DNA of 32,000 nucleotides from Prochlorococcus sp. MIT 0801 (GTDB taxonomy: Bacteria; Cyanobacteriota; Cyanobacteriia; PCC-6307; Cyanobiaceae): contig NZ_CP007754.1 of assembly GCF_000757865.1 (NCBI RefSeq), positions 1,650,001-1,682,000 on the forward strand. Direction: 5' to 3'. This document shows, in pieces, positions 16,127 through 28,293 of the stretch; the stretch's first letter is position 1, and the number at the start of each line of letters is the position of its first letter. The position numbers were made by a program, and so were the translations under genes. The notes below the pieces were generated by a model. It was not told the origin of the DNA. It worked only from the letters and a program-made list of their open reading frames with translations, and made no database searches.

Positions 16127-17152
16127 CTACCCAGCAATAAATACCATCGCAGAAACAAGAATAGCCGAAGCCAAAATCCCTATAGATGCTATTGACACGA
16201 TCTTTCCGGTGTTTAAGGAGACGGATACCGTTAACAATTCAGTTCTTGAGTCTCGTTTTTGTTGTGAATTAATTTGAGTTGGTGAATTACCTTTCTTATT
16301 GGCTTGAAATTTCTTCTGTGTTAGGGCTTTCTTCTCTGCTGCAGCTTTTTTATCTGCTGCGGCTTTCTTATTAGCTGCGGCTTTCTTATCTGCTGCGGCT
16401 TTCTTATCCGCTAAAGCTTTCTTCTCTGCTGCGGCTTTCTTATCTGCTGCAGCTTTTTTATCTGCTGCGGCTTTCTTATTAGCTGCGGCTTTTTTATCTG
16501 CTGCGGCTTTCTTATCCGCTAAAGCTTTCTTATCTGCTGCGGCTTTCTTATCTGCTGCGGCTTTCTTATCCGCTAAAGCTTTCTTATCTGCTGCGGCTTT
16601 CTTATCCGCTAAAGCTTTCTTCTCTGCTGCGGCTTTCTTCTCTGCTGCAGCTTTTTTATCTGCTGCGGCTTTCTTATCCGCTAAAGCTTTCTTCTCTGCT
16701 GCAGCTTTTTTATCTGCTGCGGCTTTCTTCTCTGCTGCAGCTTTTTTATCTGCTGCGGCTTTCTTATCCGCTAAAGCTTTCTTCTCTGCTGCGGCTTTCT
16801 TATCCGCTAACGCTTTCTTCTCTGCTGCGGCTTTCTTATTAGCTGCGGCTTTCTTATCTGCTGCAGCTTTTTTATCTGCTGCGGCTTTCTTATCTGCTGC
16901 GGCTTTCTTATCCGCTAAAGCTTTCTTCTCTGCTGCGGCTTTCTTATCTGCTGCGGCTTTCTTATCCGCTAAAGCTTTCTTCTCTGCTGCGGCTTTCTTA
17001 TCCGCTAACGCTTTCTTCTCTGCTGCGGCTTTCTTCTCTGCTAACGCTTTCTTCTCTGCTAAAGCTTTCTTATCTGCTAAAGCTTTCTTCTCTGCAGCAG
17101 CTTTCTTATCTGCTAACGCTTTCTTTTCTGCCTGAGCTGTTTGAACTTGCAC
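16127..17152 (-). CDS. Tail-anchored Ala/Lys-rich repeat protein: about 45 copies of the hexapeptide (A/L)A(E/D/N)KKA, then a short linker and a C-terminal TM helix
   Basis: 341-codon ORF with a GTG start and no internal ATG until the TM segment. Repeat units differ mainly by synonymous changes (AAG/AAA, GCC/GCT/GCA/GCG), which argues for coding constraint. The C-terminus is IVSIASIGILASAILVSAMVFIAG. Confidence 0.75.
   Translation of the reverse strand: MQVQTAQAEKKALADKKAAAEKKALADKKALAEKKALAEKKAAAEKKALADKKAAAEKKALADKKAAADKKAAAEKKALADKKAAADKKAAADKKAAADKKAAANKKAAAEKKALADKKAAAEKKALADKKAAADKKAAAEKKAAADKKAAAEKKALADKKAAADKKAAAEKKAAAEKKALADKKAAADKKALADKKAAADKKAAADKKALADKKAAADKKAAANKKAAADKKAAADKKAAAEKKALADKKAAADKKAAANKKAAADKKAAAEKKALTQKKFQANKKGNSPTQINSQQKRDSRTELLTVSVSLNTGKIVSIASIGILASAILVSAMVFIAG
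16325..17131. repeat. 18-bp tandem repeat array (about 45 units) inside the Ala/Lys repeat gene
   Basis: Plus-strand units take the form GCTGCGGCTTTCTTATCT, GCTGCAGCTTTTTTATCT or GCTAAAGCTTTCTTCTCT. Confidence 0.9.
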
Positions 17153-17399
17153 TTTAAATCCAAAATTTTGCCTTATTCAAGCACCCAGATCACTATGATT
17201 TTAGAAATATTGGCTAGTTGCAACGAAGTAATGCAATAGATTTTCTTTTCTTCTAAATATTTTCAATATCATCTTAAGTTTTTAGAACTAATAAAGCCTA
17301 ATTCAAATCTCTTCACAAGAAACTTTTTCGTCATTCAGAGGAAAGGATTCGTATTAAAATGAGAATTAAAAATCTTTTTACAAAAAAGTACTAAAAGAA

Positions 17400-19190
17400 A
17401 TGGAAGACTCTTATAAGAAAGAGAATAAAGAAGTCAATGAAGAAAAAACATTCTCAATTCCATCTTCATTAGAAAAAATTAAGGAGAATATTTCAATATC
17501 AAACAATACTCCTTATAAACCATCTAAAGAACAAATAATTAAGCAAGCATTTCAATTTCATTCAGAAGGCAACATTTCAGAAGCATCAAAATATTATCAA
17601 TATTTTATTAATCAAGGATTCAAAGATCATAGAGTTTTTTCTAATTATGGAAGTATTTTGAAAGATCTTGCCAAACTAAAAGAAGCAGAAATTTCAACTC
17701 GTAAAGCCATTGAACTTAATCCTAATTTCTCAAATGCTCATTACAATCTGGGGAATATACTAAGTGATCTTGGCCAACTAAAAGAAGCAGAAATTTCAAC
17801 TCGTAAAGCCATTGAACTTAATCCTAATTTCTCAAATGCTCATTATAGTCTCGGGAACATCCTGAACAATCTTGGCCAACTAAAAGAAGCAGAAATATCA
17901 CTTCGAAAAGCTATTGAACTTAATCCTAATAACGCTAATGCTCATTATAATCTTGGAAACATATTGAGCGAGCTTGGAAAGAAAAAAGAAACAGAAATAT
18001 CACTTCGAAAAGCTATTGAACTTAATCCTGAGCTAGCTCAAGCACATTCCAATTTAGGAAGAATATTGAAAGATACTGGCAATTTGCAAGAAGCAGAAAT
18101 ATTAACTCGAAAAGCTATTGATCTTAAGCCCGATTTGGCTGAGGCTCATTCCAATCTGGGACAAATCTTGAATGATCTTGGAATCTTACAAGATGCAGAA
18201 AACTCTACTCGAAAAGCTATTGAACTTAATCCTGATTTTGCTGAGGCTTATTTAAATCTATCTATGATAGAGCTTCTCAAAGGGAATTATCAATCTGGTC
18301 TAGATAATTATGAATTTAGATTCAAAGTAAATAAACCCAACCTTCCTCATGGCTTAACAAAAATGAAACGAAGAGACAGTAGCAAGTTACAAAAAGAAGA
18401 AAAGATCTTAGTCATCACTGAACAAGGCTTAGGAGATACTATTCAATATATGCGTTACATTCCATATCTAAAAAATCAAGGTTTTAATATTTCTTTTTGT
18501 GCTCAAACTAAACTACATCGATTAATACAAGCCTCAGGTATTGAAAAAAATCCTTTAACTCCTGAGCAAGCAAGTCAAGTTTCAGAAGGTACGTATATTC
18601 CATTATTATCTTTACCTAGATATTTAAAAGTAAGTCCAAATAATCCAATAATTTCAGAGCCATATATCTTTCCAACAAATGAACTAAAAAAGAAATGGAA
18701 AAAAATACTCTCTATAGAAAAAAAACCAATTATTGGAATTAATTGGCAAGGTAATCCAGCAATGGAAAAAATCAATTACAAAGGACGTTCTATACCTTTA
18801 GAAACATTCTCTATGCTTTTTGATCGAAATGACATAAGAATGCTTTCTCTTCAAAAGGGATTTGGTTCAGAACAACTCGATCATTGCTCATTCAGGAATA
18901 AGTTTGTTAAATCCCAACCTATAGTTAATTCAACCTGGGATTTCCTAGAAAATGCTGCCATAATTGAAAATTGTGATTTGATTATTACTTGTGATACTTC
19001 AATTGCTCATTTAGCTGGAGGGATGGGAAAAAAAGTTTGGCTACTGTTAAGAGATATCCCCTTTTGGACTTGGGGACTTGAAAAAGAAAATACATTTTGG
19101 TATCCATCGATTAGATTATTTCGTCAAAAAATTCGTCATAACTGGAATGAGGTTATGGAAAGAGTCGCTAAAGAAATAAAAAACTTATAA
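17400..19190 (+). CDS. TPR-repeat protein fused to a GT9 (heptosyltransferase-like) glycosyltransferase domain (paralog A)
   Basis: About 7 consecutive 34-aa TPR units carry the consensus AEAHxNLGxILxDLGxLKEAExSxRKAIELNPNF. The C-terminal half has GT9-type motifs (ILVITEQGLGDTIQYMRYIPYLK; ITCDTSIAHLAGGMGKKVWLLL). Confidence 0.85.
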   Translation: MEDSYKKENKEVNEEKTFSIPSSLEKIKENISISNNTPYKPSKEQIIKQAFQFHSEGNISEASKYYQYFINQGFKDHRVFSNYGSILKDLAKLKEAEISTRKAIELNPNFSNAHYNLGNILSDLGQLKEAEISTRKAIELNPNFSNAHYSLGNILNNLGQLKEAEISLRKAIELNPNNANAHYNLGNILSELGKKKETEISLRKAIELNPELAQAHSNLGRILKDTGNLQEAEILTRKAIDLKPDLAEAHSNLGQILNDLGILQDAENSTRKAIELNPDFAEAYLNLSMIELLKGNYQSGLDNYEFRFKVNKPNLPHGLTKMKRRDSSKLQKEEKILVITEQGLGDTIQYMRYIPYLKNQGFNISFCAQTKLHRLIQASGIEKNPLTPEQASQVSEGTYIPLLSLPRYLKVSPNNPIISEPYIFPTNELKKKWKKILSIEKKPIIGINWQGNPAMEKINYKGRSIPLETFSMLFDRNDIRMLSLQKGFGSEQLDHCSFRNKFVKSQPIVNSTWDFLENAAIIENCDLIITCDTSIAHLAGGMGKKVWLLLRDIPFWTWGLEKENTFWYPSIRLFRQKIRHNWNEVMERVAKEIKNL

Positions 19191-19259
19191 TCAAAAGAAT
19201 ATAAAGGCAAAATTCCTATATAAGCCTACTATTAAAGTAACATCTAAAGTATTGGGAGA

Positions 19260-19823
19260 ATGAATGGTCTTAAGCTAAATCTTGGATGTGGAGAAAGAAA
19301 GTTGCCAGGTTATATCAATGTAGATAAATTTGGAAGCCCAGATATTAAACATAATTTAGAATCCTTTCCTTGGCCTTGGAAAAAAAATTCAGTATCTGAG
19401 ATACAATTAATACATGTTCTAGAACATTTAGGAAAAGATATAGAAATATACTTTGGAATATTTAAAGAGATGTATAGAATATGTAATAATGGAGCAAATA
19501 TTAGAATAGTTGTTCCCCACTTTAGACATCAATTCTTCTATGATGATCCAACTCATGTAAGAGTTGTCACACCTTTTGGTTTACGATTATTTTCTAAGAA
19601 ATTAAATAAGTTTTGGATAGAAAATGGTTCATCTAATAGTACTCTTGGAATATATTTAGACATCGATTTTGAACTTAAAGAAATAATTTTAAAAGCAAGT
19701 GAAGACTGGTATAGATTACATCCAGATAAAAATGTCGATATTAATTTGCTCCAACAGGAATCGAATATATACAATAATTTAATTGAGCAATATGATATGA
19801 TGCTTGAGGTGGTAAAAGAATAA
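19260..19823 (+). CDS. Class I SAM-dependent methyltransferase-like protein
   Basis: N-terminal LKLNLGCGERKLPGYINVDK (motif I) and IHVLEHL resemble the Methyltransf_11/23 type. A GGGAGA RBS lies just upstream. Confidence 0.65.
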   Translation: MNGLKLNLGCGERKLPGYINVDKFGSPDIKHNLESFPWPWKKNSVSEIQLIHVLEHLGKDIEIYFGIFKEMYRICNNGANIRIVVPHFRHQFFYDDPTHVRVVTPFGLRLFSKKLNKFWIENGSSNSTLGIYLDIDFELKEIILKASEDWYRLHPDKNVDINLLQQESNIYNNLIEQYDMMLEVVKE

Positions 19824-20019
19824 CGATACTGATATTAATAAATCATACAATCGAAACGAATAGATATTACGATTATCATTCTTAGAAGTACAAAACTTTA
19901 TTAGATTTCATATATTGGAAAGAAAGATAGATTAATGTTAGATATTAATTTTTTTTGCTTTTTAAGAAGGAATAATATACCTTAATTAATAAATAACCTA
20001 TTCAACAGATAAATTTATA

Positions 20020-20202
20020 GTGAATAATCTAGAAAATTCACTCAGCGATAGAGTTTTTAAGTTGCATAGAGCAAATAAATTTCTCCATAAAGCACATCTG
20101 ATGAAAGCAGATGCGTGGCTCAATATAAACCGACCAAAACCAGCAATAAACTTCTATAAAGCTAAACGCTCAGCAACTGAGTTGAATCGAATATGTGGAT
20201 AG
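20020..20202 (+). CDS. Small basic hypothetical protein (60 aa, GTG start)
   Basis: Track ORF only; it is Lys/Arg-rich. A truncated look-alike start (GTGAATAATCAAAGAAAT...) occurs at 26331. Coding status is uncertain. Confidence 0.3.
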   Translation: MNNLENSLSDRVFKLHRANKFLHKAHLMKADAWLNINRPKPAINFYKAKRSATELNRICG

Positions 20203-20325
20203 GGAAAAGCAATTTTCCTCCCTACTTTTCCCTCCTAAGCTATAAACTGTTAATTGAGACCTTTAGTCTCATATCCTTACTACAAATGGTCAGAGGATTA
20301 CTAATTTAAAAATACCTAGAGAATT

Positions 20326-20913
20326 ATGGAATCTGATGATAAATATAACAAAGAGCAAAAGGTCTTCAGGATAAAGACATTTACTGTTCCCTTTTCTTTG
20401 GAAAAGATTAAGGAAAATATGCATATTAATACTCATACTTCATCAAATCCTTCAAAAGAAACAATCATTACAAAAGCATTTCAATTTCATTCAGAAGGTA
20501 ACATTTCAGAAGCATCAAAATATTATCAATATTTTATTAATCAAGGATTCAAAGATCATAGAGTTTTTTCAAATTATGGAAGTATTTTGAAAGATCTAGG
20601 AAAATCAAAGGAAGCAGCAAACTTATTACGTAAAGCAATTACAATTAACCCTAAATTTGCTGCTGGACATTACAATCTTGGGAACATGTTGAAAGAAATG
20701 GGCAAGTCAAAAGAAGCAATTTTGTGTTATAAAGAATCACTTTTATGCTATAAAGAAGAAATTAATTCCGATAAAAATATTGATAAAGTCAAAAATAATC
20801 TAGGTGATCTACTATTAAAAAATGGCAATTTAAAAGAAGGCTTATTATATATAAGAGAGGCAAATGGGTCCATTATTCTTAATTATAAAAAATCTAGCAT
20901 AATCATTAATTAA
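20326..20913 (+). CDS. Short TPR protein (paralog B) with no catalytic domain
   Basis: It shares the N-terminal module with paralogs A, C and D; 120 of 122 nt are identical to A across AFQFHSEGNISEASKYYQYFINQGFKDHRVFSNYGSILKDL. Its TAA stop directly abuts the ATG of the next gene, in the same frame. Confidence 0.8.
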   Translation: MESDDKYNKEQKVFRIKTFTVPFSLEKIKENMHINTHTSSNPSKETIITKAFQFHSEGNISEASKYYQYFINQGFKDHRVFSNYGSILKDLGKSKEAANLLRKAITINPKFAAGHYNLGNMLKEMGKSKEAILCYKESLLCYKEEINSDKNIDKVKNNLGDLLLKNGNLKEGLLYIREANGSIILNYKKSSIIIN

Positions 20914-21513
20914 ATGAATAAAGTATTTATCAATAAAAGTAACCTACATCCTCATTTTATTGGCTCTTGGATTATGGACGAATTATCTATATGTAAAGGT
21001 CTTATAAATTATTTTGAACTAAATTCAATTAAACATATTAAAGGCAGAATAGGGGGTGGAATTGATCCTAATACGAAGGATAGTATTGATATTGTTATTC
21101 ATCCTAAAGATATTTTATTGCCAGGTAATGAAATTTTTAAAAAATATCTTGATGAGCTTTTTAATTTCTACAAAAACTATTTAGATGAATGGCCTTTTTT
21201 AAAGGAAATGACTCAAGTATTAGAAATTGGTTCATTCAATCTTCAAAGATATAAACCTGGTCAACATTTTAAAAAAATACATACAGAGCGGGCCAGTATA
21301 GATAGCTCTCATCGTGTTTTTGCTTTTATGACTTACTTAAATGATGTTAAAGAAGGAGGTTCAACATATTTTAGTCATTATGATCTTGAAATACAGCCTA
21401 GAGAGGGATTAACGTTAATTTGGCCCGCGGAATGGACTCACGCACACAGAGGTAATACATTAATAAAAGGTTCAAAATATATCATAACTGGTTGGATAAA
21501 CTTTGCTAATTAA
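20914..21513 (+). CDS. 2OG-Fe(II) oxygenase, prolyl-4-hydroxylase-like
   Basis: KIHTERAS (HxD/E), FMTYLNDVKEGGSTYF, PREGLTLIWPAEWTHAHRG (distal His) and GSKYIITGWINF (2OG-binding Lys context) follow the P4H-type double-stranded beta-helix pattern. Confidence 0.8.
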   Translation: MNKVFINKSNLHPHFIGSWIMDELSICKGLINYFELNSIKHIKGRIGGGIDPNTKDSIDIVIHPKDILLPGNEIFKKYLDELFNFYKNYLDEWPFLKEMTQVLEIGSFNLQRYKPGQHFKKIHTERASIDSSHRVFAFMTYLNDVKEGGSTYFSHYDLEIQPREGLTLIWPAEWTHAHRGNTLIKGSKYIITGWINFAN

Positions 21514-21659
21514 TCCCAATTAATTATTATATTTTCTAATTTTTGTATATAAAAGATATTTTAATTAATATCCTATATGAATTAGATTCATAGCTTAAAT
21601 TATAAGTAATATTTTACCTTAAGAGATAAACATTTAAACGAAGATTAGCATCATAGAAT

Positions 21660-21738
21660 CCTTTAACATTACAACATATTTGGTCATTTGGACTTATACG
21701 GATTCACCCAACCTTAATAGGAACGTAGAGGAAGTTCG
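21660..21738. repeat. Degenerate copy A of the tRNA-Ser 3' end plus downstream-flank repeat
   Basis: ...CAACATATTTGGTCATTTGGACTTATACGGATTCACCCAACCTTAATAGGAACGTAGAGGAAGTTCG aligns with 26711-26797 and with 28150-28224. Confidence 0.55.
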
Positions 21739-22094
21739 CTAGTGGCAAACCAAAAAGAACGACAGCGAAAGGAAATGAACTAATAACTACCTGAGAAATA
21801 CATATATTGCCTCCAAAGCAGGAAAGGCAGAGTGAGTCGGAAGATATTCTTGCTCACTAAAACTTCAGAAAGTTCCAAAAGAAGAGTTAACGCAAATCAT
21901 TAACTATGGATTAAAGGACATAACTAAGTTGGATGACTTCAATCAAGTATTGGATTAGGGAAAACAGTTCTTTTTATCAAGCAAGAATTCTTCATCTAAC
22001 TATATGACTTAAGTCACAATAATCTCAGGAAAAGTTTGAAGTACCAATTAAATTGAGTAGTAGAATTAATGAAATTAGAAGTCCTTAGAAGATA

Positions 22095-24647
22095 ATGGAA
22101 TCTATTGATAAAGATCAAGGAAAAAATAAGATCACTAAAATTAAAATATACCCAGTTCCATATGAGTTAGAAGAAATCAAAGAAAATCTTACTATTGTTA
22201 TCAATACTTCATCTAAAGATTCTAAACAACAAGTAATTAATCAGGCATTTAACTTTCACTCAAAAGGAAATATAGCACAAGCACTAAAATATTATCAACA
22301 GATAATAAATCAAGGATCTAATGATTATAGAGTTTTTTATAATTATGGGTTAATACTAAAAGATCTTGGGAAAGTAAAAGAAGCAGAAGTATCACTTCGC
22401 CGCGCAATTGAAATTAATCCTGATTTCGCTAATGCATATTTAAGTCTTGGAAATTTATTAAGAGGTCTTAGGAATTTTAAAGACGCAGAAATATATACTC
22501 GCAAAGCAATTGAAATCAATCCAAACTTCGCAGAAGCTCATTCCAATCTGGGAAGTATCTTACAAGATATTGGTAAATTAAAAGAAGCAGAAGCATCACT
22601 TCACAAAGCCATTGAACTCAATACTAATGTAGGAGAGGTTCATTATAACTTAGGGATCATTTTAAAAGATCTTGGTAAAATACAAGAATCTGAAAAATCC
22701 ACTCGCAAAGCAATTAAGATTAATCCTAACTTTGCAAATGCTCATATGTATTTAGGAACCATATTAAAAGATCTTGGCAAATTAAAAGAAGCTGAAAAAT
22801 CCACTCGCAAAGCAATTGAAATCAATCCTAACTTTGCAAATGCTCATATGAATTTGGGAACCATATTAAAAGATCTTGATAAATTACAAGAAGCAGAAAT
22901 CTCTACTCGTAAAGCCATTGACATTAATCCTAATTCCGCAGAGGTTCATTACAACTTGGGAATCATATTAAAAGATCTTGGCAAATTAAAAGAAGCTGAA
23001 AAATCCACTCGCAAAGCAATTGAAATTAATCCTAATTTTGCAGTTGCTCATAATAACCTGGGAGATATATTAAGAGCTCTTGGGAATATACAAAAGTCTG
23101 AGTTATCAATAAGAAAAGCTATTGAAATAAATCCTAATTTAGCTTTTGCTCACTTGAATCTGGGGAGAATATTAGTAGATCTAGACAAATTAAAAGAAGC
23201 AGAATTATCTACCAAAAAAGCTATTGAACTCAAACCTGAACTAATAATGGCGCATTTCAATCTTGGAATTATTTTTATAAATCTTGGGAAATATGATGCT
23301 GCTATAAATTGCTATAAAAAAGCTATAAAGTTAAACAATTCTTTCTCACCAGCAAAGGTTGGATTACTTGAATCTAAAAAAGATATATGTGACTGGAGTG
23401 ATCAAAAAGCTGATAATACTTGGATTAAGACTCTTGGTTTTGAAGGTGACGCTGTAATTCCATTCCCTTTCTTCTTTTTTGAAGATAATCCTTTAAAAGA
23501 TTTAAAAAGAGCCCAAAACTTCTATAAACAAAATTTCAAACAAAATGCTGTTAATTTACCTATTTTCAAAAATAAAAGAATTCATATAGGTTACTTCTCT
23601 TCTGACTTTAAAGATCACGCAACTATGCATCTAATTGCTTCTATTTTTGAATTACACGATAAATCAAAATTCAAAATATATTTATATTCATTTACTCCTA
23701 GAGAAGATATATATACAGAGAGAGCTAAACAATCTGGATGTTTTTTTAGAGATATAAAAAATTTGAATACTATTGAAGCTGTTGAATTAGCAAGGAGAGA
23801 TAGACTCGATATAGCTATAGATCTTAAAGGTTATACTAAACATTCTAGAATGAATATCTTTTCATCTCGAGTAGCTCCTATACAAATAAATTATCTTGGA
23901 TATCCAGGATCTCTGGGTGCAGAAACTATTGATTATATAATTGCTGATAATATTTTAATCCCAAAGGAAAAGGAAAGATTTTATTCTGAAAAAATTATAC
24001 GAATGCCAAATTGCTATCAATGTAATGATAATAAAAAAGAAATTTCTAAAGAATCTATTTCCCGTAGAGATTTTAAACTGCCTGATAAAGGATTTATATT
24101 TACTTGTTTTAATTCTAATAAAAAAATATCTCCAAAAGAATTTGATATTTGGATGAGATTACTTAAAGAAGTAAAAGGAAGCGTACTATGGTTATATAAA
24201 TCTAATACTTGGGCAATTCAAAACCTATGTAAAGAAGCAGAGATAAGAAATATTGATTCAGATAGATTATTTTTTGCTAACAAGCTTCCATTAGAAAAAC
24301 ATTTAGCCAGATATTCTCTTGGTGATTTAGCACTTGATACTTTTAACTGTAATGGTCACACTACGACCTCAGATGCTTTATGGGCAGGTTTACCAGTTCT
24401 AACAAAAATTGGAGAAAGCTTTTCTGCAAGAGTATCTGCAAGTTTACTAACTTCTCTAGGGATTCCAGAACTCATTACACATAATGAGAAAGAATATGAA
24501 GAGAAAGCTATTCACATAGCAAATAATCCTGATGTCCTCAAGAACCTAAAGTCGCAAGTAATTACTTTGAGGAATAAATCACCACTTTTTAATTCAAAAT
24601 TATTTACAAAGAATCTAGAAAGTAAATTCCTGGAACTTGTAAAGTAA
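22095..24647 (+). CDS. TPR-repeat protein fused to a GT41 (O-GlcNAc transferase / SPINDLY-like) domain (paralog C)
   Basis: About 11 TPR units are followed by GT41 hallmarks: IHIGYFSSDFKDHATMHLIASIFELHD and LDTFNCNGHTTTSDALWAGLPVLTKIGESFSARVSASLLTSLGIPELI. Confidence 0.9.
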   Translation: MESIDKDQGKNKITKIKIYPVPYELEEIKENLTIVINTSSKDSKQQVINQAFNFHSKGNIAQALKYYQQIINQGSNDYRVFYNYGLILKDLGKVKEAEVSLRRAIEINPDFANAYLSLGNLLRGLRNFKDAEIYTRKAIEINPNFAEAHSNLGSILQDIGKLKEAEASLHKAIELNTNVGEVHYNLGIILKDLGKIQESEKSTRKAIKINPNFANAHMYLGTILKDLGKLKEAEKSTRKAIEINPNFANAHMNLGTILKDLDKLQEAEISTRKAIDINPNSAEVHYNLGIILKDLGKLKEAEKSTRKAIEINPNFAVAHNNLGDILRALGNIQKSELSIRKAIEINPNLAFAHLNLGRILVDLDKLKEAELSTKKAIELKPELIMAHFNLGIIFINLGKYDAAINCYKKAIKLNNSFSPAKVGLLESKKDICDWSDQKADNTWIKTLGFEGDAVIPFPFFFFEDNPLKDLKRAQNFYKQNFKQNAVNLPIFKNKRIHIGYFSSDFKDHATMHLIASIFELHDKSKFKIYLYSFTPREDIYTERAKQSGCFFRDIKNLNTIEAVELARRDRLDIAIDLKGYTKHSRMNIFSSRVAPIQINYLGYPGSLGAETIDYIIADNILIPKEKERFYSEKIIRMPNCYQCNDNKKEISKESISRRDFKLPDKGFIFTCFNSNKKISPKEFDIWMRLLKEVKGSVLWLYKSNTWAIQNLCKEAEIRNIDSDRLFFANKLPLEKHLARYSLGDLALDTFNCNGHTTTSDALWAGLPVLTKIGESFSARVSASLLTSLGIPELITHNEKEYEEKAIHIANNPDVLKNLKSQVITLRNKSPLFNSKLFTKNLESKFLELVK

Positions 24648-24899
24648 TATAAGCAGTCATACTAGTAAGTTTAGGTGATTATGAACTCGTCTGAATCTAA
24701 TTAAAAACTGAGAGAAAGTCCATTATTGGAGAACCAGAATGAACTGGGACGCAAGGGGATGGAAGGTCGAGGCGGAAAAAAGCAATATTTCCCCCTACTT
24801 TTTTCCCTACGAAGTAAAGATGTTAATCAACAGAAAATTATTGTCTTAACAGACTAAATTAACTCAATGTATTTCCCAATGGGGACTTCCTAAGAGATT

Positions 24900-26276
24900 A
24901 TGGAATCTAGTAGTAAAAATCAAGAGAGGGAAAAAGTCATAAAAATAAAGACATTTACAATTCCATCTTCTTTGGGAGAGATCAAAGAAAATATTATAAT
25001 TAATACTGATACTTCATCTAAACATTCTAAAGAGGAAGAAATCTATCAAGTCTCTAAGTTACATTCACAAGAAAACAAATTAGAAGCAGCAAACTATTAT
25101 AATTCCTTAATCAATCAAGGGTCTAATGATTATAGAGTATTTTCTAATTATGGAGTAATATTAAAAGATCTTGGCAAATTAAAAGAAGCTGAAATAACTC
25201 TGAGAAAAGCTATTAAGTTAAACCCACATAACCCAAAGGATTATAAAAATTTAGGAAGTATATTAGTGAATCAAGGTCAATTAAAGGAAGCACTAATAGA
25301 AGTAGAAAAAGCAATTAAAATAAATCCTAATTATGAAAAAGCTCATCTTAATCTAGGAGTTATACTTAGATACAATGGACAAATAAAAGAAGCAGAATTA
25401 TCATTCCGCAAAGCACTAGAAATTAAACCTGATTACGCAGATGCTCATTATAATTTAGGAATTATTTTAAAAGATAGTGGTAGATCAAAAGAGGCAGAAC
25501 TATCATTCCAGAAAGCCATTAAAATTAAACCAAATTGGGAAGCAAGTTTCCTCTATTCGAGTATTCTTTTTGATAAAAAAGATTTTGATGGCTCCCTAAG
25601 TAATCTTCAAAGAATAAAATCTAGCGTAACCTCGGGTAATTTAAAGACAGTCCAAGCAGCAATAACAGCAATCAATTTAACTAAAAAAAAATCACTCAAT
25701 AAAAATCAATTAGACTCCTCAAAAACCTCAAAGTTATTAAAGGAAGAAAAGTTTAATCGACTGATTTTAAAACGACCAGTAGAGAAAGAACTTCTATCGT
25801 ATCTATATAAACTAAATACAATTTTACTAGACAATACAGATCCAAACGATTCGAGATACGGAAAAGGTTTATGCTCAGATTTTAATTTATTTGAAGATAA
25901 TTCACAAATTATTAGAAAGTTAGAAAGTGATCTAATAGAGATATCAAAAAGATCACTTAATAAAAAAAAACTAATAATTACTGACTCATTTTTTAATATT
26001 TTTATTTCAGGTTCTGGATCAAGAAGACATCACCATATTGGGAAACAAGATATGAACTTTGGACTATATTTTCATAAATATTCATTAGTATATTATCTAG
26101 ATATAGGAGATCAAACTTCTCAAAATCCAGGCGTACTTAAATTATATAATCCTGACGAAGAGATACTACCCTCAAACGATATGATTATCATACTTAATAG
26201 TACAAAACTTCATTCAGTTTCATATGTTGGAAAAAAAGATAGAGTAATGGTAGGTATTAATTTCTATGCTTTCTAA
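24900..26276 (+). CDS. TPR-repeat protein fused to a putative 2OG-Fe(II) oxygenase domain of the cyanobacterial/cyanophage type (paralog D)
   Basis: It has the shared N-terminal module plus about 4-5 TPRs. The C-terminal RRHHHIGKQD...SLVYYLDIG...GVLKLYNP...ILPSNDMIIILNSTKLHSVSYVGKKDRVMVGINFY fits an HxH/D...H...R jelly-roll pattern. Confidence 0.7.
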   Translation: MESSSKNQEREKVIKIKTFTIPSSLGEIKENIIINTDTSSKHSKEEEIYQVSKLHSQENKLEAANYYNSLINQGSNDYRVFSNYGVILKDLGKLKEAEITLRKAIKLNPHNPKDYKNLGSILVNQGQLKEALIEVEKAIKINPNYEKAHLNLGVILRYNGQIKEAELSFRKALEIKPDYADAHYNLGIILKDSGRSKEAELSFQKAIKIKPNWEASFLYSSILFDKKDFDGSLSNLQRIKSSVTSGNLKTVQAAITAINLTKKKSLNKNQLDSSKTSKLLKEEKFNRLILKRPVEKELLSYLYKLNTILLDNTDPNDSRYGKGLCSDFNLFEDNSQIIRKLESDLIEISKRSLNKKKLIITDSFFNIFISGSGSRRHHHIGKQDMNFGLYFHKYSLVYYLDIGDQTSQNPGVLKLYNPDEEILPSNDMIIILNSTKLHSVSYVGKKDRVMVGINFYAF

Positions 26277-26665
26277 GAAGAAATAATTTAACTTGATTAA
26301 CAAATAGTTAATTCAATAGCTACAATTAATAGTGAATAATCAAAGAAATCTACGAAATATCAGATTTCCTTAAGTCACCCAGTATTTTATTCCTATTAAT
26401 TACCTTTTTTTGTCCCCAACATATACTCCAACTTCGTGTCAGAATGAGAATTCTGAGGGACAGTCTTTCATCTAAGCCTTTTATAGAATCTAATTAGTAA
26501 TCTTTAACCCCTTCAAGGACTGAAATGACAAGAGGAGGGAGGATAATAGAGAACCCTATAACCTGAAAAACACTACCCACAACGCAGCACCCGAAATAGA
26601 CCGACATACCTGAAACCCGCATCCCTTCAGCGATCTCACTTTCCCCCTACTCAGTGCAAGGAATC

Positions 26666-26797
26666 TATGGCACACTTACTGAGAGCCTTGGACTGCCTGA
26701 TCTTCTAATTCCTTACTGGCAACATTTTTTTCTGTTTCTTGGACTTATATGGACTTGCCCGAACCAATTAAGAACAGAGAGGGAGGACTTTTGAATG
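26666..26797. repeat. Degenerate copy B of the tRNA-Ser 3' end plus downstream-flank repeat
   Basis: TATGGCACA...ACTGGCAACATTT...TTGGACTTATATGGACTTGCCCGAACCAATTAAGAACAGAGAGGGAGGA parallels 28105-28224 (TATGGCACA...ACTGGCATTT...TTGAGTCCTTATGAAGCACCCTGAACCAAAATAAATACGGAGAGGGAGGGA). Confidence 0.6.
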
Positions 26798-26854
26798 ACA
26801 CCAAGTGGACTGTGGTGGAGCAGCATGACGCAAGTGGATGAGATTTTGGGGTTA

Positions 26855-26880
26855 TTCCACCCAACATTCCACCCAACACA
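26855..26880. repeat. CACCCAACA repeat block, left (TTCCACCCAACA x2)
   Basis: The 21-mer CACCCAACATTCCACCCAACA at 26858-26878 recurs exactly at 28071-28091. Confidence 0.85.
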
Positions 26881-26928
26881 TTTAAAATGTTATTTAAGGA
26901 TCACAATTACTGTCTAAAATATACTGTC

Positions 26929-26975
26929 AAAATTAAAAGAGGGACTCAAGATCGCTGAAGCAGCAGGGTCCCTTT
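26929..26975 (-). terminator. Possible terminator for the minus-strand small-ORF pair
   Basis: On the minus strand, GGGAC-22 nt-GTCCC is followed by TCTTTTAATTTT, 15 nt after the stop at 26990. The loop is long, so the structure is only moderately convincing. Confidence 0.45.
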
Positions 26976-26989
26976 CTTAATGCAAGAAA

Positions 26990-27160
26990 TCAAGGTTTCC
27001 AATACTCATCCCATTCATCCTGAAGTTCTTTCTGCGATAAAGAGTTGTAGAAACCTCTCCACTTCTTTTCTGAATTTGCGTCAGTTGCACTCAATGACAC
27101 CATTAGATCTATTCCTTCTTCTTTGGTAAAGGATTTGCCTTGATTTGATTTGAATATCAC
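26990..27160 (-). CDS. Possible small ORF: 56 codons from GTG at 27160, or 37 codons from ATG at 27103
   Basis: Hand translation gives VIFKSNQGKSFTKEEGIDLMVSLSATDANSEKKWRGFYNSLSQKELQDEWDEYWKP*. The GTG directly follows the TAA of the upstream ORF (TAAGTG). Confidence 0.3.
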   Translation of the reverse strand: MIFKSNQGKSFTKEEGIDLMVSLSATDANSEKKWRGFYNSLSQKELQDEWDEYWKP

Positions 27161-27391
27161 TTACGAAGCAATCTCTTCCCAAGGATCACGTGAAGACAGT
27201 TCCTTGAATGGTATCAATTTAAAATCACCTCTCCTGATACCACTACAGATCAATCCATCTGGATGTTCTCTCTTAAATATTTCAACTGCATCTTCTTTTC
27301 GTTCTGATGGAATCGTGACTTTATAAATCACATCACCTGAATCACGAATCTTATAAACAAAAATCCAATCATATTCTTTACTATCCATCAT
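27161..27391 (-). CDS. Hypothetical small protein (76 aa)
   Basis: Track ORF with an ATGATG start. Its composition is balanced and non-repetitive. I recognise no family. Confidence 0.5.
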   Translation of the reverse strand: MMDSKEYDWIFVYKIRDSGDVIYKVTIPSERKEDAVEIFKREHPDGLICSGIRRGDFKLIPFKELSSRDPWEEIAS

Positions 27392-27515
27392 CAGTTCATG
27401 CTGACTAACTTTGTTTTAACTCACTTTGGTCTGATGAACCAATTACACAAATAGAAACAGGTGTTTTCTCTCATGTTCCAATGATTTTGTTTGATTAGAA
27501 ATGGGTTGGAGTTCT

Positions 27516-27736
27516 AGCACTTGTCTTCCCGTAGGTCAGGGAAGTGGTTAGTAAAGAAAATGGATTGTTCACACGGATACACAAGTGCTGAACTTAAAGG
27601 GGGCAACCAAAATCTTGCCCCCTTCTTTAATGGAAAATTTATTGGTTGACCATCTAGACAAAAGCAGTATATTTGTACTAGTTCAATCCCCGTCACAAAC
27701 AACAAAGGAACCACCAGTGAGCAGGTGGTTTTTTTG
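27516..27736 (+). ncRNA. Candidate structured small RNA ending in a strong intrinsic terminator
   Basis: Nested hairpins are AGCACTTGT(27516)/ACAAGTGCT(27581), CTTCCC/GGGAAG (27525-27544) and AAGGGGGCAA/TTGCCCCCTT (27597-27624). The terminator AACCACC-agtgagca-GGTGGTT plus T7 sits at 27709-27736. There is no credible plus-strand ORF. Confidence 0.3.
27709..27736 (+). terminator. Rho-independent terminator (plus strand)
   Basis: A 7-bp GC-rich stem and 8-nt loop are followed by TTTTTTTG. Confidence 0.75.
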
Positions 27737-27752
27737 TCTCTTGAAATAGAAA

Positions 27753-28034
27753 ATGAACCAACCAATCAGAGAAGCATTGCCAACGCCAACAGGATGGTTA
27801 GTTGCACCGACTAGAGATTTTTGTCTGTTCTTTATTCGTGATCCCAAATCGGTCATGGTTGCACCGACTGTCTTGACTCAACTTTGGTACTGCACAGAGG
27901 AAGGCATTCCAACAAGACTAAAGAACACAAGACGATTGGATTATGAGAGTGCTCATGAAACTTGGAACGAACTACTCTCTAATGATTGGGAATTAGTAGA
28001 ACATCAATTCGGTGCTTGTGTTGATGCTGCTTAA
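27753..28034 (+). CDS. Small conserved-hypothetical-like protein, reminiscent of the marine picocyanobacterial DUF1651 family
   Basis: 93 aa. GWLVAP...RRLDYESAHETWNELLSNDWELVEHQFG resembles my memory of DUF1651 (GWL...RRxL...A...W..L...GW..V). Unverified. Confidence 0.5.
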   Translation: MNQPIREALPTPTGWLVAPTRDFCLFFIRDPKSVMVAPTVLTQLWYCTEEGIPTRLKNTRRLDYESAHETWNELLSNDWELVEHQFGACVDAA

Positions 28035-28048
28035 TCAACCACTGATAT

Positions 28049-28091
28049 CACCCAACACAAGATTGTTTAACACCCAACATTCCACCCAACA
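28049..28091. repeat. CACCCAACA repeat block, right (three units)
   Basis: CACCCAACACAA (28049-28060) plus CACCCAACATTCCACCCAACA (28071-28091). Confidence 0.85.
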
Positions 28092-28104
28092 AAAAACTGA
28101 ACTG

Positions 28105-28224
28105 TATGGCACAGTATGGACACTCATGATTCAATCATTTTCGTAATATCTAGTCACTGACTGGCATTTGAGTCCTTATGAAGCACCCTGAACCAAAATA
28201 AATACGGAGAGGGAGGGATTCGAA
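28105..28224. repeat. Copy C (reference copy) of the repeat: the flank downstream of tRNA-Ser plus the tRNA 3' end
   Basis: See copies A and B. The last about 20 nt (28205-28224) are the acceptor and T-arm 3' part of the intact tRNA. Confidence 0.6.
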
Positions 28225-28293
28225 CCCTCGACAGAAGTTACCTCCTGTAACTCCTTAGCAGGGAGCCGCTTTCAACCACTCAGCCACCTCTCC
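28205..28293 (-). tRNA. tRNA-Ser (anticodon GCU), 89 nt, long variable arm, no encoded CCA
   Basis: The minus strand reads GGAGAGGTGGCTGAGTGGTTGAAAGCGGCTCCCTGCTAAGGAGTTACAGGAGGTAACTTCTGTCGAGGGTTCGAATCCCTCCCTCTCCG. The acceptor is GGAGAGG/CCTCTCC, the anticodon loop is CT-GCT-AA, the T-loop is GGTTCGAATCC, and there is a class II variable stem. Confidence 0.95.

Follow-up and report, generated by a model that had tools for sequence, protein, structure and literature searches.

The 32,000-nucleotide stretch of the Prochlorococcus sp. MIT 0801 genome analyzed here (the window) contains the genes rpsI, rpmE, prfA, an HNH gene and alr, then tRNA-Ser(GCU) and, to the left of the tRNA, the island at ~17.3-28.2 kb with which this study is concerned. 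In the stretch left of tRNA-Ser the G+C content is 28-32%, compared to 36-43% in the flanks. The island holds four paralogous TPR genes with glycosyltransferase or 2OG-oxygenase fusions, one separate oxygenase gene and small open reading frames (ORFs), as well as decayed copies of the tRNA end. Based on the comparisons below, it is very probably an accretion island built by repeated insertion of small integrative elements from one family at the tRNA-Ser(GCU) 3' end.

The window was compared with 27 loci of low-light clade I (LLI) Prochlorococcus that were found with the alr protein (71-87% protein identity), which places the window in a relative of this clade. The order alr, tRNA-Ser(GCU), island is kept in the window and in all 27 loci, while the content at the locus is hypervariable, with alternative cargo and an array composition that differs in nearly every genome. 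Three of the LLI genomes (L006, L008, L002) have an empty site, in which the tRNA is followed by a conserved spacer and then by a repeat-protein gene. As this spacer is found at 17153-17258 of the window and its gene at 16127-17152, the outer border of the island lies at ~17.26-17.35 kb and the gene belongs to the core genome. The gene had also been considered as island cargo, a possibility that was rejected because the same gene follows the tRNA in the empty-site genomes.

Copies of the tRNA end and the attachment core

A preliminary description of this DNA, made from the sequence alone, had noted same-orientation copies of the tRNA end at 26666-26797, 21660-21738 and 17336-17351. Within the window, a stringent alignment barely separated such copies from background, and it was gentler scoring together with cross-genome comparison that did so. 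With 28095-28235 as the reference, the best same-strand matches lie at 26.66-26.79 and 24.64-24.72 kb (both score 20, background 10.6 +/- 2.0), and the 26.7 and 21.7 kb copies are reciprocal best matches within the window (24.5 compared to 11 +/- 2.3). Formal alignment gave a pairwise identity among the window copies of 46-64% over the core and ~55 nt, and the window alone thus gives weak evidence. A library of 54 genuine tRNA-end sites with their flanks from other genomes was decisive (Table 1): every significant library match to the window is in tRNA orientation, and the scars at 26.78, 26.53, 24.71 and 21.73 kb are joined to arms homologous to scar- or tRNA-adjacent arms elsewhere, with E-values from 6e-9 to 8e-52. 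These cross-genome values lift the 26.78 and 21.73 kb copies of the preliminary description well above background and establish them as real.

The third copy, at 17336-17351, could not be established. Its score against the last 22 nt of the tRNA is 11, compared to 10 for the best wrong-strand background and 12 for one match in a coding region. Soft support comes from its position, 45-80 nt from the junction between island and core genome, and from an adjacent arm-like motif (17300-17327) that matches L005 13890-13917 (E = 5e-4). A terminal scar at ~17295-17310, suggested by MAFFT, is not callable in a sequence this decayed.

The orientation of the copies is strongly biased across genomes. Counted with <=2 mismatches, the final 13 nt of the tRNA recur 23 times on the tRNA strand and once on the opposite strand in the 27 LLI loci and the window, and all 23 tRNA-strand copies are found downstream of the tRNA inside the hypervariable locus. 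Their consensus is gtgtcactcaaaagT-CCTCCCTCTCCG-TTCTTAATT, and their identity with the empty site runs ~9 nt beyond the tRNA end. The attachment (att) core delimited by attB and attP in related sequences is a block of 25 identical nucleotides (AATCCCTCCCTCTCCGTTCTTATTT), 16 of them from the tRNA; the attP of the metagenome contig L054 and the LLI empty site have these 25 consecutive bases in common.

With cores placed at 26775-26786, ~26527-26546, 24708-24719 and 21724-21735, the island is made up of at least five or six segments (~28.20-27.64, 27.64-26.79, 26.77-26.55, 26.53-24.72, 24.71-21.74 and 21.72-17.3 kb). That att-like copies partition the island had been recognized in the preliminary description, which counted three segments and had missed the scars at 24.71 and 26.53 kb and the junction at 27.64 kb. 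At this junction, homology to the scar-flanked module of other genomes starts 4 nt past the core position, and a scar-less junction of the same kind is also seen in L024. Moving away from the tRNA, the core matches the tRNA end at 11/12, ~9/12 (with an indel), 8/12 and 9/12 positions, and scar decay thus increases roughly with distance from the tRNA.

Rfam matched only the tRNA in the window, and the repeats thus belong to no known RNA family. A scan of viral contigs with the scar-specific core found nothing. Matches to a shorter core were rejected, as they consisted solely of unrelated sequences and of terminator-like hairpins in phage-like contigs, and the arm-repeat pattern described below gave a single match, in an unrelated contig. 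Among the hairpins, GGAGGGCTTTGACACCCTCCCTCTCCGTTTTT is contained in five viral contigs of low G+C content (L030, L031, L035, L036, L038); it shares the tRNA-end string and has no sign of an att site.

Arm repeats, gene-less units and intact elements

Intact elements with the same core exist outside the window. In marine contigs recovered by scanning metagenomes with the scar-specific core, genes for tyrosine integrases of 416-431 aa are adjacent to the core; this integrase family has >200 relatives in marine data and weak matches to PF13356, the N-terminal arm-binding domain. Contigs L042, L044, L050 and L054 carry the att core of the window. Intact elements measure 5.8-9.8 kb; besides the tyrosine integrase they encode a small serine recombinase and an AlpA excisionase. 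In L054 and four related contigs, a 5,765-bp unit encodes AlpA, integrase, resolvase, a 330-aa TPR protein and small ORFs; no recognizable replication gene was seen in this element. A circular form is represented by L050, a circle of 7,644 bp (123-nt exact terminal overlap) with integrase, ParB-methylase, resolvase and attP. At the chromosomal site itself, L060 (high-light-like Prochlorococcus) has a 9.8-kb element between the tRNA-Ser(GCU) next to alr and a distal scar. This scar matches that genome's own tRNA variant, and AlpA and integrase (P0024) lie beside it, facing inward. A tyrosine recombinase family tied to this tRNA is thus found in other genomes and metagenomes. Checks suggested in the preliminary description, for empty sites and alternative cargo, for circular forms and for such a recombinase, therefore all turned out as it had expected.

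The window itself contains no integrase remnants by tBLASTn (E <= 1) or integrase-family profile hidden Markov models (E <= 10), and no match to excisionase, resolvase or small-ORF queries by phmmer (E <= 1), in agreement with the earlier remark that no recombinase survives in it. An intact integrase is likewise absent from all 27 LLI loci; the island of L022 retains integrase and AlpA fragments just inside a scar.

The intact elements share an arrangement of arm-type repeats around the core. Two direct repeats, 12 nt apart, are located at about -92 and -80 from the core start (P arm) and three at about +126, +138 and +160 (P' arm). The repeat sequence varies among elements (e.g. TTGTTGTCGGA, GGGGATAAT, TAGGGGAGGAAA), while the spacing is conserved. 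The same geometry is seen beside many scars and tRNA junctions in LLI loci, compared to 3% of random positions, and is retained in the window at 28.05-28.09, 26.86-26.88 and 24.80-24.81 kb. GTTGGGTG occurs six times in the window in tRNA orientation and never in the opposite one; three of these copies lie at +126/+138/+160 of the tRNA core, a spacing also found in the intact elements L042, L054 and L050, and two at -91/-79 of the 26.78 kb scar. At the 24.71 kb scar, GTAGGG repeats occupy -91/-79.

The arms themselves are diverse. Four P' arm families (A, B, C and E) and several P arm families are present in the window, and each family examined has closer relatives in other genomes than inside the window. 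For instance, the P' arm of scar 3 (24621-24714) matches type B arms that follow a tRNA or scar in L010, L019, L022, L024 and L027 (E = 6e-9).

One segment of the window, a module of ~245 bp at 26547-26774, consists of two fused arms and no gene; it matches L019+8915 (E = 3e-19) and L018+8090 (E = 1e-12). Comparable gene-less units of 189-257 bp are found in L011, L023, L012, L013 and L018. In L011 and L023 there is one unit each of 217 bp, where a single group of repeats doubles as the +126 set and the -91 set (126 + 91 = 217), as expected from an interior deletion between arm repeats. Such a deletion would be a concrete route to the loss of the integrase, as judged from the layout of the repeats.

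The segment next to the tRNA (26787-28204) has both att sites with complete sets of arm sites and no integrase. At the nucleotide level, its 870-bp module has 95-97% identity to L005 15526-16397, L025 16198-17065, L012 15166-16032 and L027 11410-12259, whereas the core genes of the genomes that share it are 75-96% identical, and its 76-aa protein was found in 544 blocks of the public collection. Based on this near-identity across diverged genomes and the spread of the 76-aa ORF, the module looks like the backbone of actively spreading elements. Homologues of the neighboring DUF1651 ORF are situated beside tRNA-Ser in L001, L003 and L024 and beside tRNA-Thr(GGT) in L067. In the latter contig (4546-6599, from the same single cell as L010) the DUF1651 ORF is accompanied by a 76-aa ORF whose protein is identical to that of the window; three arm-like repeats of a different sequence (ATGTTCCAG) lie nearby, and the order of ORF and hairpin is opposite to that in the 870-bp module. 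In L068 202-4659 and L069 1-2824 the 76-aa ORF lies downstream of another type of tyrosine integrase (464 and 440 aa; weak score) at a distance of ~1.3-1.4 kb, and in L068 also upstream of a resolvase. The large ORFs beside the 76-aa ORF in L068, L069 and L071 were rejected as members of the integrase family studied here, two being of the other, weakly scoring type and one a protease. Metagenome contig L048 (1-1848) has GTTGGGTGA arm repeats as in the tRNA-proximal segment of the window, other interior ORFs (266 and 135 aa) and no integrase.

Table 1 Features of the island and its borders in the window, and matches from the library of tRNA-end sites (-, strand of the tRNA; positions relative to the core start are signed)
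Feature	Position	Strand	Details
tRNA-Ser(GCU), integration target	28205-28293	-	ARAGORN; Rfam RF00005, 62.9 bits; tRNA half of the att core made up of its last 16 nt
att core at intact tRNA junction	28196-28220	-	In tRNA orientation AATCCCTCCCTCTCCG followed by TATTTATTT; from empty-site attB (L008, L002) and attP (L054)
P' arm type A, presumably of the most recent remnant	28049-28204	-	Three direct repeats (T)GTTGGGTG starting +126, +138, +160; 91% over 140 nt to tRNA-adjacent arm of L023
Scar-less module junction	27636-27752 (boundary ~27636-27641)	.	att scar at this place in L005, L012, L025; no recognizable core in the window
Two direct arm-type repeats, P arm	26858-26881	-	TGTTGGGTGGAA at -91 and -79 from the 26.78 kb core (intact attP: -92, -80)
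att scar 1	26775-26786	-	Core CCTCCCTCTCTG, 11/12 match to tRNA end; consensus context gtgtcaNtcaaaagT...GTTCTTAATT; 96% over 122 nt to L005+16376
Gene-less module, ~245 bp	26547-26774	-	P' arm of type C (26670-26774) joined to a type d P arm (26547-26642)
att scar 2	~26527-26546	-	TTATCCTCCCTCCTCTTGTC, 4-nt core deletion; aligned to L018+8090 and L013+11594; P arm and core E = 1e-12
P arm of scar 3	24720-24822	-	Repeats GTAGGGAAAAAA, GTAGGGGGAAAT starting -91, -79; aligns to P arms of L005+13775, L010+18045
att scar 3	24708-24719	-	Core ACTTTCTCTCAG then TTTTTAATTAGATTCAGAC; P' arm E = 6e-9, 14 library matches
att scar 4	21724-21735	-	Core ACTTCCTCTACG; P arm 21736-21825, P' arm 21660-21723 (72% identical to 26.7 kb copy); P arm and core 80% over 98 nt to L025+16175, E = 4e-18
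Candidate distal scar	17336-17351	-	CGAATCCTTTCCTCTG; unproven, score 11 (wrong-strand background maximum 10)
Library match, P' arm	28085-28224		91% over 140 nt
Library match, P' arm, core missing	27529-27635		95%
Library match, P arm and core	26765-26886		96% over 122 nt
Library match, core and P' arm	26670-26790		E = 3e-19
Library match, P arm and core	26535-26630		E = 1e-12
Library match, P' arm	24650-24714		E = 6e-9
Library match, P arm and core	21718-21815		80% over 98 nt, E = 4e-18
93-aa small ORF (DUF1651), remnant cargo	27753-28034	+	Pfam PF07864, E = 4e-28
870-bp module	26787-27635	-	76-aa ORF 27161-27391, 56-aa ORF 26990-27160, G+C-rich hairpin 27588-27630; scar-bounded in other genomes
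TPR gene with C-terminal 2OG-Fe(II) oxygenase-like domain	24900-26276	+	Pfam
TPR gene with family 41 glycosyltransferase (GT41; O-GlcNAc-transferase-like)	22095-24647	+	Pfam PF13844, E = 1e-85
Cargo block, probably the oldest	17400-21513	+	TPR-GT9-like 17400-19190; methyltransferase-like ORF 19260-19823; TPR 20326-20913; 2OG-Fe(II) oxygenase 20914-21513; Pfam
Conserved chromosomal flank	17153-17299	-	Adjoins the tRNA directly in empty-site genomes; 17153-17258 clear, 17259-17299 degenerate
AEKKA-repeat membrane protein gene, core	16127-17152	-	Immediately downstream of the tRNA in L006, L008, L002; marks the outer island border

Probable repeated insertion and competing explanations

The strand bias of the tRNA-end copies, the empty sites and the intact elements with the same core all bear out the origin first proposed for the copies, site-specific integration at the tRNA. 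A tyrosine integrase whose N-terminus would bind the arms, an excisionase of the AlpA type and a small serine recombinase are encoded by the elements, along with variable cargo such as the TPR gene of the 5.8-kb element. The integrase would recombine the ~25-bp core common to attP and attB (the last 16 nt of the tRNA and ~9 nt downstream), presumably guided by the arm-type repeats at -92/-80 and +126/+138/+160. Each insertion would rebuild the tRNA end and displace the earlier insert, together with its partial tRNA copy, away from the tRNA. Integrase, excisionase and resolvase modules would then be deleted, sometimes between directly repeated arm sites, and what is left over would be cargo blocks or gene-less units of ~217-250 bp. 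The scars would then decay, the most distal and oldest the most.

Chance resemblance in A+T-rich intergenic DNA might be invoked for copies that are only 46-64% identical within the window, and the 17.34 kb copy is no better than background. Such chance resemblance is a possible account of 17336-17351 and is refuted for the scars at 26.78, 26.53, 24.71 and 21.73 kb by the strand bias of 23:1, by E-values that reach 1e-18 to 1e-52 against independent genomes and by an arm-repeat spacing that is conserved, compared to a background rate of 3%; for the repeats in general it is extremely improbable. Alternatively, a single ancestral unit of scar, arm and TPR gene could have been copied by unequal crossing-over and have diverged since, so that the repeats would not represent separate integrations. 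The four TPR genes (17400-26276) have in common a conserved start of ~100 aa (~300 nt) with 71-77% nucleotide identity, the copies at 26.7 and 21.7 kb share one P' arm type and match each other best within the window, and an 84-nt gene fragment is present twice (19868-19951 and 26180-26263). Nevertheless, the scar-adjacent arms fall into several P families and no fewer than four unrelated P' families, for most of them far closer relatives exist in other genomes (26765-26886 96%, 21718-21815 80%, 24650-24714 75%, compared to 46-64% within the window), and the same arms directly follow the intact tRNA in other strains, which makes such local tandem duplication unlikely as the source of the repeats.

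A different possibility, less probable than insertion at this site and still to be taken seriously, is that serial integration took place elsewhere and that the array, or large parts of it, arrived by homologous recombination via the flanks or between scars. This would fit the 870-bp module, with its 95-97% identity next to core genes of 75-96%, the order of tRNA, DUF1651 ORF and 76-aa ORF common to L001, L003 and L024, and the absence of intact integrases from all 27 LLI loci. Set against this are the composition of the array, different in nearly every genome, and the report that whole-island replacement is not seen and that recombination rates in the flanks are as elsewhere in the genome (Hackl et al., bioRxiv 10.1101/2020.12.28.424599). 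Acquisition as a block would in any case complement, and not exclude, an origin of the scars by integration.

Repeated insertion at tRNA-Ser(GCU) by one element family remains the preferred explanation, and several points weigh against it. The array could have been put together in a different lineage before it was taken up as one block. With four TPR genes being paralogous, some of the growth by local duplication is possible. No integrase trace is present in the window, and the link to the YR family of integrases comes from other genomes and metagenomes. The 27.64 kb junction lacks a scar, and decay has made the distal end (17.26-17.35 kb) unreadable. Finally, L054 (1-10607) is a tandem of two 5,765-bp copies, 95% identical, and may be an assembly chimera of circle variants rather than a true dimer. 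Both local duplication of TPR units and block acquisition may have contributed to the island; neither explains the diversity of the arms.

The C-terminal parts of the four TPR genes differ (GT9-like, none in a short gene of 195 aa, GT41, 2OG-oxygenase-like), and relatives of these genes fill the island in most LLI genomes. For 19260-19823, the methyltransferase label is based on a motif only, Pfam being without a match. In the spacer after this ORF, 84 nt (19868-19951) duplicate the 3' end of the TPR-oxygenase gene (26180-26263) with 85% identity; this gene fragment was left behind by a rearrangement within the island. A non-coding block of 133 nt (21853-21985) upstream of the TPR-GT41 gene has 84-89% identity to blocks in L012, L025 and L026, and is possibly a small RNA or a regulatory region that they share. 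Beyond the border, the product of 16127-17152 consists almost entirely of 6-aa (18-nt) repeats of the AEKKA(A/L)ADKK type and, at the C-terminus, a membrane segment; strains differ widely in the number of repeats, the tract being ~0.2 kb in L006 and ~1 kb in L002. In a single-cell assembly (L009 3055-12914), the rpoA/secY/adk ribosomal-protein cluster comes after tRNA-Ser(GCU) and ~240 nt of the usual spacer and replaces the repeat-protein gene and the psaL-side flank, owing to either a rearrangement at the island or a misassembly.

Relation to known integrative systems

In attP sites of the lambda and P4 type, the core is flanked by direct arm-type repeats, and the integrase has an N-terminal arm-binding domain. 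The layout of two and three repeats at 12-nt spacing, with motifs that vary among elements, is specific to the family described here, for which arm binding is predicted. Streptococcal cis-mobilizable elements (CIMEs) are segments whose flanking att sites are those of a relative with an integrase, an enzyme that they themselves lack; they arise from tandem accretion and internal deletion. The segment at 26.79-28.20 kb resembles them in having both arm sets and no integrase; its mobilization in trans is putative, with indirect hints from the 95-97% identity of the 870-bp module across diverged genomes and from the related small-ORF sequence at a second tRNA, and the helpers would be small non-conjugative elements. 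Perhaps, although this is a tentative suggestion drawn from the full set of arm-type sites at their canonical positions and from the near-identity of the 870-bp module, the segment is not dead debris and could be a "hitcher" moved in trans by integrases of transient YR_2-type elements, in which case the gene-less 217-250-bp units would be extra landing pads that keep the island recombinogenic. Islands of high-light Prochlorococcus reportedly abut tRNAs and carry direct repeats of the tRNA 3' end, as is said to have been described by Coleman et al. in Science in 2006. The present locus is alike in its hypervariability at a tRNA, whereas those islands are at other tRNAs and no element family or att architecture was assigned then.

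Element-driven accretion at tRNAs has since been described, with partial tRNAs scattered in islands and tandem elements split by partial tRNAs; most island DNA is not intact element, and circular forms exist (Hackl et al., bioRxiv 10.1101/2020.12.28.424599). The locus agrees with this model in its full-length tRNA at a conserved position, direct partial tRNA copies, variable content and empty sites, and an integrase for this tRNA in intact elements (in L060 at the tRNA, in L042, L044, L050 and L054 with the same core). The preliminary description had invoked both accretion seeded by the tRNA with partial tRNA repeats, which holds, and the tycheposon class, which in the strict sense does not. 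Tycheposons target Pro-tgg, Ser-tga, Ala-ggc, Thr-ggt, Arg-tct, Met-cat and tmRNA, duplicate ~40 bp of the tRNA, and carry replication or packaging modules (bioRxiv 10.1101/2020.12.28.424599). In contrast, tRNA-Ser(GCU) is outside this seven-gene list of the main text, and the core here is ~25 bp with 16 nt of tRNA. Hallmark genes are missing from the window; the related 5.8-kb element has integrase, AlpA and resolvase and no recognizable replication gene.

The closest class by tRNA target and repeat length is "cryptic_A", defined by a YR_2 integrase, SSR and xis2, the targets tRNA S[cga/gct] and T[ggt], and repeats of ~20 bp (bioRxiv 10.1101/2020.12.28.424599, Supplementary Table 5). The target tRNA-Ser(GCU) is the same, a related small-ORF module is found at tRNA-Thr(GGT) in L067, and the ~20 bp repeat agrees with the 25-nt block common to attB and attP. 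The signature genes SSR and xis2 are present in the intact relatives L054, L050 (resolvase) and L060 and missing from the window, which, unlike cryptic_A, consists of remnants only. As the intact relatives fit cryptic_A on every feature testable, the window is likely a decayed member of this known cryptic_A/YR_2 class and not new in kind, an assignment made by target, repeat length and signature genes and not by the YR_2 profile. Both the class and the accretion model are already published, and the model is refined rather than changed by the present locus. The layout of the arm repeats and the gene-less 217-bp units are apparently not described in that work (Hackl et al., bioRxiv 10.1101/2020.12.28.424599). 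What the comparison adds is a base-level dissection of island building at a tRNA outside the main tycheposon list, comprising the att core, the arm layout, the decay of scars and a likely route of integrase loss, and a direct tie between cryptic_A-type elements and TPR cargo of the kind that fills this island.

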